From contig OZ024744.1 in NCBI GenBank assembly GCA_964016885.1, forward strand, positions 82,336,001-82,400,000: DNA of 64,000 bases, read 5' to 3'. Shown here piece after piece: positions 5,087-42,119 of this stretch (position 1 is the first letter of the stretch; each line of letters opens with the position of its first letter). A program made the position numbers and the translations under genes. Source of the stretch: Eledone cirrhosa. Its lineage: Eukaryota. The notes below the pieces were generated by a model. That model was not told the DNA's origin and did no database searches. It worked only from the letters and a program-made list of their open reading frames with translations.

Positions 5087-5255
5087 AACAAAGGAAGTGT
5101 GGTAAGGAACCAGATGGACCATAACACACCATAGTACTCAATACTTAGGGTAGGAGAGTGGGTAATAGGAAAATGTTTAACCCCGACGGCAGAGCTCGAG
5201 CCGTTTCGACGGTTAAACGGCTTGAGCTTTGCCGTCGGGGTTAAACATTTTCCTA
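5087..5255 (-). mobile_element. Short fold-back element, HHR-half family, copy A
   Basis: Hairpin 5166-5255 plus ~80-bp tail, flanked by (TA)n; shared with five other copies. Confidence 0.85.
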
Positions 5256-5418
5256 TATATATATATGTATATATATATGTATATATATATATATATATAT
5301 ATATATATATATATATAATATATATATATATATATATATATATATATATATATATATATATATATATATATATATATATATATATATATATAATATATAT
5401 ATATATATATATATATAT

Positions 5419-5724
5419 AACGATAAATTAACGGAGCCATAGGCCCTCGCCATTCCCTGTAAATGATGTGCTCAAAGAAGAAGAAATCCTAAACTCTTTA
5501 AAATACAATATGTTGAAAAGGCAACACACCAGAGAGAGATATACAGTGCGCTATCAATAACACAGGGAAAAAACCACCAGTGTATGGAATCTATAACCCA
5601 TGAAAGGCAGACTATAGACACGATAATTAAAAATATAAATTAAAGCGTAAATAAAGCGTATTTATTTACGCTTTAATTTATATTTATATCTCTCTATGGT
5701 GTGTTACCTTCTCAACATATTGTA
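5419..5724 (-). mobile_element. Fold-back element with tail (second family, PLE-like architecture)
   Basis: 5505-5542 is an inverted repeat of 5685-5724; central hairpin 5629-5685; unique segment 5419-5504; (TA)n on both sides. Confidence 0.6.
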
Positions 5725-6945
5725 TATATATATATATATGTATATATATTTTGAGTATATGTTGGTTGTATACCAACACCCTAGTATGCAGATAGAGCAC
5801 TCGACGAAGTGCGTAGGTTGGTTTGGTTACTCCGGAGTAATGTAAAATATATGTATATATATATGTATATATATATATGTATATATATATATATATATAT
5901 ATATATATATATATATATATATATATATATATATATATATGTATACATATATATATATATATATATATATATATATACATATAAAATAAAATAAATAAGT
6001 CAAACTGACGTATGGGAAGAGTGACCTTACAGATCTTTATAACACTGAGATGGGTATAACACACACACACATTTTATTCGATTATTTTATTTTATTTTTT
6101 GTTCCTTTACCATCTCATTCTTTCTACCATTTTATCATTTTTTTTTAGCTGACTCCAACAACAACACCACTACCAACATAAGCATAGAGGTCAGATGTAC
6201 CTAACAATAACAAGAACAACCACTACAGATTGGCTTGCCTCAGAACGAATTTCTATAGACTTTTGACTGAGGAATGTTCTAACAACTGACCAATGAGAGG
6301 AGAAGAGGCCCTTTGACGCTGAAATTCGTTTGTTTAAATTCATATGATTCCAGTTCCTCAGTGAAATAGCAACCCAACCAGGAACTGGGCATATCAGAGT
6401 ATTGACAAAGTTAAACACCTCAACAACATGTGTATTCGTCTCTACCACACTAATTCGGACTGCCTGAAGAGGTCACATCCAAAGATGGCTGTCACCTAAA
6501 TATATATAGCAGTAATAAACGAAGCCAAATTTTAAACATTTAATTTATTTATTTTATTTTATATGTATATATATGTATATATATGTATATATATATGTAT
6601 ATATATATACATATATATATATACATATATATATACATATATATATACATACTTTCGAGATATGCGGCAAGCGCTCAATGGACTAAAAGAAGACCAGAAC
6701 AATTAACATACGTTATAGAGGCCAAACAAACTGAAAACGGCGGTCATGAAGCTATCAGCGACCTGAGCCAAAAAAACGAAGGAAGCTAAACAGGCTAAAC
6801 AAAATAATTTACTTGGACCTCCTGAACATTGATGGTATAATCCAGTGGGAGGTTTCTGTGACATCTAAATCCATTATACTGCCTGCTTTCATTGTAAGCT
6901 CACAAAGTATATATATATATATATATATATATATATATATATATA

Positions 6946-7291
6946 TAGCTTTCACCGTACTTTTCAACTAAAGACATTTTAGTCAGATAATGGGGTTTAG
7001 AACCCTCAGATAAATGGAAAAAGATGAGTATTGACGTACATGGGAGCCGAACCCACATCTTTGGTTATCCAGACCACTGTGCTACCATGGTGTAAATGGT
7101 AGCACAGTGGTCTGGATAACCAAAGATGTGGGTTCGGCTCCCATGTACGTCAATACTCATCTTTTTCCATTTATCTGAGGGTTCTAAACCCCATTATCTG
7201 ACTAAAATTTATTTAGTTGAAAAGTACGGTGAAAGCTATTCTATTTTCTAATTTCAAACCTGCTCACTGCTTCAAAACATACTTACTTGTC
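6946..7291 (+). mobile_element. Fold-back element with tRNA-like head (SINE-like), PLE-type insertion geometry
   Basis: Near-perfect ~143-bp inverted arms (6946-7088 / 7096-7238), 53-bp tail, (TA)n flanks; TGGTGTAAATGGT A-box-like and GGTTCGGCTCC B-box-like motifs at 7088-7152. Confidence 0.75.
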
Positions 7292-7502
7292 ATATATATA
7301 TATATATATATATATATATATATATATGCAAAAGATTTATTTAAAATTGTTGGGTTACAACGAGTAAATATTTTATAACTGATATAAAGCACTCAACAAG
7401 TTTTGGAGTAGATATACATATATATATATAATTATATGGAGTAGATATACATATATATATATAATTATATGGAGTAGATATACATATATATATATATATA
7501 TA

Positions 7503-7605
7503 ATTATTTCTACTTTTGGCACAGGGCCAGCAATTATACCAGTGCATTACTAGTACTTTATTTCATCAACCCCGTAAGGATGAAAGGCAAAGTTAACCTC
7601 GGTGG
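7503..7605 (-). mobile_element. SINE 3' part (Meta/MESC-like)
   Basis: tttctacttttggcacagggccagcaatt..ggatgaaaggcaaagttaacctcgg. Confidence 0.8.
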
Positions 7606-7960
7606 AATATAGGCTACAAATGTCAGGTCGACACACCCACTCCTAATAGTGCCTACATTGGGTTAACTGCCAATAGATTCAAGCAGTGTCTATACATTCA
7701 CACCAATTCTTTTCTTAACCCTTTAAGAAGGAACATAACGTCATTTTCGACCTATATCTAAAGTCTAAAAGACAACCACACCCGATAGAGGCTACACTGC
7801 TAAAGCTAGATCATATAATGGAAACAAAAGCCCACGTGACCTTTGCGCCGCCGAAGCCCTGGAAATACTCTATGCCAACGATAAAATCTTAAATAAAAAA
7901 ATCCGAAGCAATTTCGGCTTATAAACACAAACGATATAAAACCTTCCTGTATTACGGCCC
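7606..7960 (+). pseudogene. Degenerate PLE GIY-YIG endonuclease fragment
   Basis: Hand translation from 7651: AYIGLTANRFKQCLYIHTNSFLNPLRRNITSFSTYI*SLKD, later DLCAAEALEILYANDKILNKK; homologous to 3984-4442. Confidence 0.7.
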
Positions 7961-8084
7961 TAAGTACTTTATTTTTATACTATTATTTATTTGTATAGGT
8001 ATGTACACCTTATACGTGTTTGTGTATGTATGTATATATGTATACCTATGTATATATGTGTGTATTTATATAAATATATATATA

Positions 8085-8213
8085 TGTGTGTGTGTGTGTG
8101 TGTGTGTGAGCGTGTGTGTGTGTGTGTGTGTGTGAGCGTGTGTGTGTGTGTGTGTGTGTGTGTGTGTGTGTGTGTGTGTGTGCGTGTGTGTGTGTGTGTG
8201 TGTGTGTGTGTGT
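8085..8213. repeat. (TG)n microsatellite
   Basis: Direct inspection. Confidence 0.95.
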
Positions 8214-40047: not shown

Positions 40048-40082
40048 ATATAAATAAATATATATATATATATATATATATA

Positions 40083-40224
40083 TAGGAACGAGTAGGACCC
40101 CGACAGCTGAGCTCAAGCCGTTTCGACGACTAATTCTGGACTCTACTACCCACTCTACTACCCTAAGTATTGAGTACTTTGGTGCGTTATGATCCATCTG
40201 GTTCCTTACAACATTTCCTTCGTT
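40083..40224 (+). mobile_element. Fold-back HHR-half family, copy D (direct arm deleted)
   Basis: Inverted arm joined directly to tail. Confidence 0.8.
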
Positions 40225-40289
40225 ATATATATATATATATATATATATATATATATATATATATATATATATATATATATATATGTAGG

Positions 40290-40540
40290 AGGTGAGTTTT
40301 ATTGTAGTACAATAAATATGGTCCTTGAAAGACAAAAATATTAAATATAACATCTCTTGGAAAAAGGTTTCTTCTGCTTCTTCATACTTGAACAGTTCTC
40401 TATCCAAGACTTGCAAGCTCTGTTTAAATGAAAAATTTACCATTATATCTAATTTAGATTCTATAATAAATAGACGCACTGACTTGTTTTCTCTCTGCTT
40501 GCATAAATTCCACAGAACATTCCATAAAGTATACAGCTAA
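40290..40540 (+). pseudogene. C-terminal fragment of PLE GIY-YIG endonuclease
   Basis: LKDKNIKYNISWKKVSSASSY..CKLCLNEKFTII..INRRTDLFSLCLH, homologous to 3984-4442 C-terminus. Confidence 0.75.
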
Positions 40541-41003
40541 TATCTAATACTTTATCAATTTAAAATCCTTTTCTCAAAGGCACACATATATATATATACA
40601 TTTTTAAAAATATACCCATCTTTCTACCTTATTTCAAAGTTATTTATTATACATTATATAATACTAGTTACTCATTCTATATCACTCCTATTTATCACTT
40701 CCCTTTCTTCCTTTTCCTTTTCTTTTCTTTTTCTTTTAATTTCTAACCCCTAATCTGTACCTTTTCTCATTATGCCTAACATAGAAACAATTATTACACA
40801 GTACAATATATTCTTACTTTATATCACCTTGAAAAAATCCTTCGTAAACATATACATTTTTTTTTTTACGTTAGATCATTCATCCTCAATTCATTATTTT
40901 TTTCTCCCTTTCATGCTCATCTAACTTATTCATTCTATCTTCTACTTCTTTCACAATATATCCTTAATTACATTACTATTGCTATATTTTTACATTTTTT
41001 AAT

Positions 41004-41170
41004 AATACATATCAACATTTCTTCCATCGCACATATTATTAAACCCTTAAATATTATTCTTAATACATATTAACAATTTCTTGCCATCGCACATATTATT
41101 AAACCCTTAAATATTATTCTTAATACATATTAACAATTTCTTTTCATCGCACATATTATTAAACCCTTCA
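41004..41170. repeat. 60-bp tandem repeat x ~3
   Basis: taatacatattaacaatttctt..catcgcacatattattaaaccctt repeated. Confidence 0.9.
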
Positions 41171-41680
41171 ATATACAAACCTTAACTTAACATTATTTTT
41201 CTCTTCGTTAATTTTCAAATTCTTTTAATTTATATATTATCTTCCAACGGTTTTTCAACCTCTCTATGTAAAACAATATATTTTTCTCAGTTATAAAAGC
41301 TATCTCTCTCTCTCTATCACCCATCTCTCCTCCTATCTCATCCTTCCTCATTATACTCCTCCCCCTCCACTTTTTACTCTCATCTCCTCCTCTTTTTCAT
41401 CCTTTCCACACCCACCCCCCTCAAATTTTTTTTTCCCAATATCACACATCAATCTAAAACCACTTCTCATATGTTGATTTAAAACTGCACTATTCACAAT
41501 TGTTTTTTAACCTCCATATCATGTCTTCCTATTTTATCTGATGTAAACTCAAATGTTATTGCATAATGATATTTGTTTTTGAAATGCGCATAATAAAATA
41601 CATGGAACTCTTTTAACCATATTTTGATCTTATATATATATATATATATATATATATATATATATATATATATATATATA

Positions 41681-41824
41681 TAGTTCAGATCTAGCTGTCG
41701 AAACGGCCGTTGCTCAGCCGTCGGGATCCTGACTATTTTCCTATTATCCACTTTACTACCCTAAGTATTGAGTACTCTGGTGCGTTTTGGTCCACCTGGT
41801 ATCTTACCACACCAGCTTTGTTTT
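41681..41824 (+). mobile_element. Fold-back HHR-half family, copy E (single arm, diverged)
   Basis: tagctgtcgaaacggcc..cagccgtcggga + tail. Confidence 0.8.
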
Positions 41825-41926
41825 ATATATATATATATATATATATATATATATATATATATATATATATATATATATATATATATATATATATATATAT
41901 ATATATATATATATATATATATATAT

Positions 41927-42119
41927 AGCGAGGGAAAAGTGGTAAGGAACCAGGTGGACCATAACGCACCAAAGTACTCAATACTTAGGGTAGTAGAGTG
42001 GGTAATAGGAGTAAGTAAGACCCCGACGGCTGAGCTCGAGCCGTTTCGACGGCTAATTCAGTACAGAATTAGCCGTCGAAACGGCTTGAGCTCAGCCGTC
42101 GGGGTCTTACTTACTCCTA
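41927..42119 (-). mobile_element. Fold-back HHR-half family, copy F
   Basis: Hairpin 42006-42119, tail 41927-42005. Confidence 0.88.

Follow-up and report, generated by a model that had tools for sequence, protein, structure and literature searches.

A stretch of 64,000 nucleotides from the genome of Eledone cirrhosa (contig OZ024744.1, positions 82,336,001 to 82,400,000 of the forward strand; referred to as the window in what follows) contains six related repeats, four of which combine a hairpin with a 78-nt tail. With a probability of roughly three in four, these six repeats are 3'-end copies of a Penelope-like element (PLE) belonging to the Hydra clade, likely abortive mini-insertions which were made as that element integrated into (TA)n. 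The hairpins are the known PLE insertion pattern in miniature, without the element body, and do not constitute a novel type of element. They stand out by their scale, as hairpins make up about three quarters of the about 26,000 young 3' ends, which is in the order of 20,000 in the genome. The Penelope and hammerhead interpretation that had been given in a first-pass annotation of this DNA is largely right, and its single claims are taken up below where the respective results are described.

The six copies in the window

An 18-mer of the tail (CCCTAAGTATTGAGTACT) matched all six copies exactly, as opposed to 0.04 matches expected from shuffles. Three copies reside on the plus strand (34440, 40082 and 41683) and three on the minus strand (5087, 34903 and 41927), and (TA)n surrounds every one of them. 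The copies lie where they had been annotated. Their composition is as follows:

5087..5256, minus strand: copy A, hairpin; tail 5087-5164, direct arm 5165-5212, inverted arm 5213-5256
34440..34633, plus strand: copy B, hairpin; inverted arm 34440-34496, direct arm 34499-34555, tail 34556-34633
34903..35108, minus strand: copy C, hairpin; tail 34903-34980, direct arm 34981-35044, inverted arm 35045-35108
40082..40224, plus strand: copy D; inverted arm 40082-40142, filler CTAC 40143-40146, tail 40147-40224
41683..41822, plus strand: copy E; direct arm 41683-41744, tail 41745-41822
41927..42120, minus strand: copy F, hairpin; tail 41927-42004, direct arm 42005-42062, inverted arm 42063-42120

A hairpin followed by the 78-nt tail is thus found in copies A, B, C and F, whereby the arms of copy B (57 nt, 98% complementary) and copy F (58 nt, 97%) are slightly shorter than those of copy C (64 nt, 92%), which both reach TTTAGTCC. 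Copy A turns at the GAAAC box and has its variable stretch AAATGTTTAA mirrored on both arms; such mirroring of copy-specific stretches, which had been described at first pass, was seen in A, B, C and F. Copy D is without a direct arm, its inverted arm leading via the 4-nt filler to the tail, and copy E is a plain 5'-truncated member of an older subfamily that is without an inverted arm and whose direct arm begins at the usual turning point. The motif TAGCCGTC-GAAA-CGGCT-TGAGCTC-AGCCG-TC-GGGGTC was found on the sense arm as described, and the statement that every hairpin turns in stem II holds roughly, as copies B, C and F turn 10-20 nt past the 3' strand of stem II, inside the loop, and copy A at the GAAAC box. 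All six window copies contain the 3' half of the hammerhead-like motif only and none has a complete catalytic core on one strand; in those with an inverted arm, the reverse complement of the arm occupies the place of the hammerhead 5' box. Apart from the six copies, no pieces of the parent element were found in the window.

The parent element

The tail represents the last 78 nt of the parent element, and most copies also hold the 60-odd nt preceding it. Walking upstream in the older subfamily extended the known sequence from about 200 nt to about 1.1 kb and then to about 3.0 kb, where decayed coding sequence with YRDDGL and GIY-YIG-like strings was reached. A 157-residue endonuclease piece of this subfamily gave 54,644 first-look candidates in the genome, many of which contain an open frame of 784 codons; some are arranged head to tail with a period of 3,531 nt. 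Within the array at locus L111, direct arm and tail were identified as the last ~135-140 nt of each 3,531-nt tandem unit (90-93% identity); the next unit begins immediately after the tail, and an ATG 90 nt further on opens an intact open reading frame (ORF) of 717 codons.

Compared by BLASTP with a canonical PLE ORF of the same genome, for which Pfam reports RVT_1 and GIY-YIG, the parent protein (P0001) gave a match over the reverse transcriptase (RT) motifs (E=2e-7) and a weak one over VIYQ...YIGLT (E=0.26). Both GIY-YIG and RVT_1 are present in its Atlas look-alikes, and its database relatives are ~700 amino acids long and encoded on 2-3.6-kb contigs. The parent element has RT and then a C-terminal GIY-YIG domain in one ORF. 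For the Hydra clade, the motifs DKT, CxCX5C, and CxxC and CxH around conserved E and N were described, next to (TA)n targeting (PMC8557442). The parent protein contains SDKTGN, CNCPDRSIC and CNLCSEE...NKK...ACKH, and the element inserts into (TA)n; the strings GLYRDDGL, NFLDVTLDL and PYRKPND are common to it and to the Hydra alignment in the supplement of that report. Judged by these sequence features, the parent is an abundant Hydra-clade PLE. The PLE origin of the arm, as had been proposed, is hence borne out, since arm and tail end an ORF-bearing element with Hydra-clade protein motifs. A Naiad or Neptune parent, for which the (TA)n target and the Cys linker would have spoken, was ruled out by the C-terminal endonuclease and the Hydra motifs.

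Two side observations concern PLE sequences more generally. At L061:6686-9037 on the plus strand lies another Penelope-like family, unrelated to the present one, which has an open frame of 784 codons and whose ends are without the tail of the hairpin family. Further, a tRNA-like repeat, resembling a short interspersed element (SINE) and containing GATGAAAGGCAAAGTTGACCTCGGCGGGATTTGAACTCAGA, repeatedly adjoins 5'-truncated PLE ends (L013, upstream of the copy at 601; L051; L155; L176).

The hammerhead-like motif of the full element

In the full element, the order of segments is ACCCC-UUGAGAA-G.UCGGCUA, a 37-nt loop, UAGCCGUC-GAAA, a helix III of 5-6 bp with a palindromic loop, GUC and GGGGU. As a predicted fold, this motif is a complete type-I hammerhead layout apart from U3 and A8 in the 5' box. 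The arm had been recognized as the 3' half of a hammerhead at first pass, which is in line with the finding that longer copies hold the missing 5' half. Longer copies with an ORF and a 5' box, which had been anticipated, do exist; their box is however UUGANAA (U3/A8) and not the anticipated CTGANGA, with CTGAGAA occurring in only 2 of 42 aligned copies and the UUGANAA core in 37 or more of them, so that a canonical CUGANGA core is not what characterizes this family. Across subfamilies, any of the four bases (G, U, C or A) occurs at N7 of the box, while U3, A8 and GAAA are kept.

Over the 42 aligned copies, pairing was found in 82.7% of cells as compared to 24-42% when the partners were slid, and in helix II three pairs show compensatory changes at the level of lineages. 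The covariation support for the fold is moderate, the events being few. The minimum free energy fold reproduces the three-way junction. A direct arm beginning at the predicted cleavage site GGGGTC was identified in 3-4 of 91 sampled copies (L119, L153, L164 and perhaps L116), whereby the joins are ambiguous by 1-2 nt. As a separate observation, helix III is deleted inside the direct arm of L125, L176, L177, L120 and L171 between two GCCGTC (or CGG) direct repeats, a recurrent slippage product.

Family size and insertion classes

Within the genome assembly searched (3.0 Gb), a 32-mer of the tail (CCCTAAGTATTGAGTACTYTGGTGCGTTATGG) has 25,903 exact matches, 12,921 of them forward and 12,982 reverse, and its reversed control has 0. 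A positional sample was taken that consists of the first 91 tail matches on contig 1, picked by position only. Read by hand, 66 of the 91 are hairpins (60 confirmed by an automatic rule); in the remainder, plain 5' truncations like copy E account for 10, copies running on into the element for another 10, copies with the inverted arm directly on the tail like copy D for 4 and a tail-to-tail arrangement for 1. An inverted arm is present in 70 of the sampled copies, the tail is on the direct copy only, and (TA)3 lies within 20 nt downstream of the 3' end in 87.

The PLE architecture, i.e., an inverted 5' copy beside a direct copy, a one-ended extension and variable 5' truncation, is found in this family, and the idea that the hairpin reflects the inverted 5' copy which PLEs tend to add agrees with the inverted and direct copies and the one-sided tail of the sampled insertions. 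Long versions of the same architecture were identified at L110, L204 and L210, where a tail-less inverted 3' region ending in CCTAT beside (TA)n is joined by a direct element with tail.

Junctions, arm signatures and the origin of the hairpins

The junctions between the two arms are almost all different among the 66 sampled hairpins. They include fillers, namely an A-run of 18 with 3 templated As (L175), T16 (L129) and unrelated stretches of 4-14 nt, and depending on the hairpin either the direct or the inverted arm is the longer one. One hairpin (L159) is chimeric, with arms from two subfamilies. It was considered whether one ancestral perfect palindrome spread, the varied turns resulting from later deletions at its unstable centre. 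Most variants can indeed be drawn as a deletion across the centre of the longest palindrome, and direct-repeat deletions between two GCCGTC words occur in L125, L176 and L177. Central insertions such as the A-run, T16 and the other fillers are however not derivable by deletion, the arms of L196 and L135 exceed the supposed ancestral palindrome, and for the subfamily signatures to be mirrored, the two arms would have had to evolve in concert. Furthermore, at L082:1093 the direct part is 100% identical to the parent and the turn is already off-centre, and a junction spread like that of old copies was already seen in a few young, parent-identical copies. Descent from a single palindrome is therefore highly improbable.

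With respect to the arms themselves, the same variable-stretch type is found on both arms in 43 of 44 hairpins, while about 23% would be expected under random pairing (the arm-type script returned 45 rows, of which L149 is a false hit and was left out). Long parent copies were found for six variable-stretch types (B, B', A, C, L141 and L111). The agreement in 43 of 44 rules out that two random RNAs served as templates, and both arms likely derive from one template. The earlier proposal that arms are built per insertion fits the finding that junctions differ in nearly all 66 sampled hairpins and that the arm signatures match several parent subfamilies. The companion expectation, that arms are more alike within than between copies, came out only slightly, with 1.1-3.0 as compared to 1.5-3.4 differences per 42 nt within a subfamily; a common source followed by independent decay would give such values. 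Taken together, variable junctions, fillers and the shared arm signature argue that the hairpins were made at insertion.

An alternative on this point is a SINE-like, non-autonomous element in which hairpin and tail form a ~190-nt unit that is retrotransposed by the PLE machinery, the arms being inherited from a master copy. Such a unit was first inferred from 40 BLAST matches, many of which showed the turn of copy B together with a T>C change of the direct arm that is not mirrored, and it was rejected once the positional sample had shown that these matches were selected towards the query. Identity to copy B over all 193 nt, the asymmetric turn included, amounts to 95-98% in at least 40 copies, yet these came out as the top 40 when 2,591 candidates were ranked by similarity to the query and are as such biased to its junction; almost every hairpin sampled by position has a junction of its own. 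Counted by junction string, the class of copy B has 406 genome matches and another class 887, each count including the mirror-image class, and such hundreds of copies per junction class, just as the turning zone common to several subfamilies, would be expected of inherited units. In the 887-match class, however, three types of variable stretch and both types of tail occur among the sampled copies (L150, L172, L017 and L120), which identifies recurrent joins as hot spots and not as clones, and a matching 3' end of an ORF-bearing element was found for each variable-stretch type. Fillers, chimeric arms and the class with inverted arm and tail require de novo formation, and a promoter is not evident in the unit of hairpin and tail. 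A fixed inherited unit, as it is characteristic of a SINE or a miniature inverted-repeat transposable element (MITE), is not what was found, as the junctions vary and the inverted repeat is not terminal, with the tail lying outside of it; a target duplication is unreadable within (TA)n. An inherited unit is thus improbable, and the self-standing miniature parasite which the first-pass annotation had offered as its second option found no support, given that the near-identical set reflects BLAST selection and that the junction class of copy B has just 406 genome matches.

The outer end of the inverted arm is CCTAT, i.e., the tail junction, in almost all copies, whatever the inner end may be; where the surroundings are (GA)n or (GT)n, it lies a few nt away from this point. 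For hairpins made at insertion of a Hydra-clade PLE, the following course of events is suggested. The element endonuclease would open a TA repeat, upon which RT would copy the end of one element RNA twice. The first copy, primed at the RNA 3' end, would yield tail and direct arm, whereas the second copy, primed internally at a UAU immediately 5' of the tail, would yield the inverted arm. The two DNA ends would then be joined by a template jump. Both copies would tend to stop 52-64 nt upstream of the tail, in the ribozyme loop II, and owing to this common stop the hairpins look as if their turn were fixed.

Formation at insertion could alternatively proceed via snap-back self-priming of a single cDNA instead of two primings on one RNA. 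Palindromes at inverted PLE junctions were interpreted as self-priming before (PMC3846280), near-perfect palindromes are seen at many junctions of the present family, and the agreement of arm types in 43 of 44 hairpins would be expected as well. Under snap-back, the loop should belong to the strand made first, yet either arm may be the longer one; the outer end of the inverted arm is fixed at CCTAT regardless of its inner end; the arms of L159 come from two subfamilies; and 4 of the 91 copies have an inverted arm without a direct arm, as does copy D in the window. Self-priming of this kind is consequently judged decidedly unlikely.

The turning zone

Arm ends were taken only from an anchored parse of 37 hairpins that retain both GAAAC boxes, as parsing by BLAST or local alignment over-extends through the palindrome and was not used for arm ends. 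In these hairpins, inverted-arm inner ends lie mostly 58-61 nt and direct-arm ends mostly 52-62 nt upstream of the tail, with a sharp upper limit near 62-64 nt (at the TTTAGTCC reached by copy C) that is exceeded by L135 with its direct and by L196 with its inverted arm. Of the 10 plain truncations, 3 or 4 begin at the same limit. The remaining junctions scatter from about 20 nt upward, with a small excess exactly at GGGGTC. The first-pass suggestion of a ribozyme stem acting as a fixed turning point is hence to be modified: the ends do cluster 52-64 nt upstream of the tail, but the cluster is located in loop II instead of the stem, other junctions are spread from about 20 nt on, and a few are found beyond the zone. 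The turning zone is a preferred stop within loop II and not a fixed point in a stem, whereby the cause of the stop may be either the RNA end or a stall of RT. At the commonest junction that was tested, the direct arm is ~9 nt shorter than the inverted arm; this shortfall may be the footprint of one RT stalled behind another.

Several points weigh against the reading of the repeats as abortive mini-insertions of a Hydra-clade PLE. The class counts depend on manual reading of the 91 sequences, the order of events may have been two primings or self-priming of one cDNA, and the template RNA, the RNA 5' end and ribozyme cleavage are all things that we infer. Given the junction classes with 406 and 887 matches, a minority of hairpins could have been copied as units. 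The Pfam scan of the parent ORF yielded no match, even at E<=10, and the stability of the hammerhead-like fold is not above that of shuffles (z = -0.39). A hammerhead was likewise not reported by Rfam in the window (at gathering threshold), in window positions 41600-42200 (E<=10) or in six long-copy loci (E<=1), these scans returning, as regards the hairpin family, just sub-threshold matches to microRNA (miRNA)-like hairpins and TA repeats. Finally, nine full copies possess upstream partial repeats of 71 to >1,700 nt, none of which begins at the turning zone, and the zone is therefore not a universal RNA start. For the same reason a pseudo-long terminal repeat (pLTR) of fixed length starting at the turning zone was rejected, as the repeats measure 71, 212, 277, 430, 569, 1,049, 1,455 and more nt and none starts there.

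In loop II, which is otherwise free, a TTAGTC motif is kept across old and young lineages, and in young lineages a TATA-like box is located ~30 nt upstream of it. Both features would favour an RNA end as the cause of the stop. The older lineage is without this box, which speaks against an RNA end common to all lineages. Considering the conserved initiator-like TCATTTAGTC/TTAGTC and the TATTTAAATA box of the young lineages, loop II might hold the element's own transcription start, an idea that is tentative and rather doubtful. If it were true, the mini-hairpins would be twin cDNAs of a ~140-nt mRNA leader, with the arm limit and the A-runs marking the capped RNA end, and arms beginning exactly at GGGGTC would be traces, preserved in the genome, of a U3-A8 hammerhead having cleaved itself in vivo. 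The integration junctions, about 20,000 in number, would then form a natural library for reading the PLE integration pathway.

Other features of the window and annotation

Three tandem units of ~60 nt (containing cacatattattaaacccttaaatattattcttaatacatattaacaattt) are located between copies D and E, at about 41020-41165 of the window. At 7088-7144 on the plus strand, Rfam gave a tRNA match of 29.6 bits (gathering score 29) which covers model positions 8-63 only; this is probably a tRNA-derived repeat and not a gene. Sub-threshold Rfam matches to miRNA precursors were obtained at 41776-41973, i.e., across tail, (TA)n and tail of copies E and F, and at 42006-42119, i.e., in hairpin F; examples at these copies are MIR7533 with 56.7 bits (gathering 230) and mir-5918 with 38.8 bits (gathering 69). 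Hairpins of this family are prone to be mis-annotated as MITEs, SINEs, miRNA genes or miRNA-like hairpins.

Comparison with known systems

Within the Hydra clade, elements such as Hydra-1_Obim from Octopus bimaculoides resemble the parent element in having a single ORF of ~700 amino acids with a C-terminal GIY-YIG domain, DKT and Cys motifs and a (TA)n target, and in carrying a ribozyme motif ~100 nt from the 3' end (PMC8557442). The published Hydra families were described as a "small number" of families of <3 kb with canonical CUGANGA cores (PMC8557442), from which the parent element differs by its UUGANAA core, a 37-nt loop II, a 3.5-kb unit and tens of thousands of copies. The Hydra clade hence reaches very high copy number in this genome. 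Replacement of C3-G8 by U3-A8 was previously reported for the hammerheads of the Schistosoma mansoni PLE Cercyon, which share with the parent motif the long helix II, where one base is bulged at the 5' end, as well as the retained G10.1-C11.1 pair and the palindromic loop III (PMC4209133). While the Cercyon motif is minimal, with a helix III of 0-2 bp (PMC4209133), the parent motif has a helix III of 5-6 bp and a long loop II. The U3-A8 covariant of the hammerhead would thereby be extended to a clade that was described with canonical ribozymes and few families.

A typical PLE insertion comprises an inverted pLTR, a one-sided tail of 30-40 bp and palindromic junctions (PMC3846280, PMC8557442). 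With insertions of endonuclease-bearing PLEs, the hairpins have in common the head-to-head arrangement of an inverted and a 5'-truncated direct copy, the one-ended extension, the palindromic junctions, the AT-rich or (TA)n simple-repeat targets and the heavy 5' truncation (PMC3846280, PMC8557442). They differ from other PLE insertions in that the commonest product is bodiless (~60 + ~60 + 78 nt) and in that the tail measures 78 nt as compared to 30-40 nt in the described PLEs; moreover, full copies of the parent have upstream direct repeats of no fixed length, unlike the described PLE pattern. How PLEs integrate, including what causes their tandem or inverted terminal copies and the one-sided tail, is still unexplained, and there is no in vitro PLE system, the building of which was named as a next task (PMC8557442). 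The ~20,000 minimal insertion products of one family each provide a readable junction of two reverse-transcribed ends, the sample points to a fixed internal start for the inverted copy and to a preferred common stop, and this junction record could be used for working out PLE integration.

Among non-autonomous derivatives, the animal non-LTR retrozymes are non-coding descendants of PLE pLTRs with a hammerhead sequence; they form tandem repeats, contain complete ribozymes and are thought to move via circular RNA (bioRxiv 10.64898/2026.07.22.740005). The hairpin copies, in contrast, are dispersed single hairpins that contain the ribozyme 3' half only and are not retrozymes in this sense. The 5'-inverted insertions of L1 arise by twin priming, whereby one RNA is primed twice at a staggered break and the cDNA ends become joined at variable junctions; their inverted part and their direct part correspond to adjacent stretches of the RNA that do not overlap. 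In the hairpin family, both parts cover the same stretch, and the result is hence a reverse duplication.

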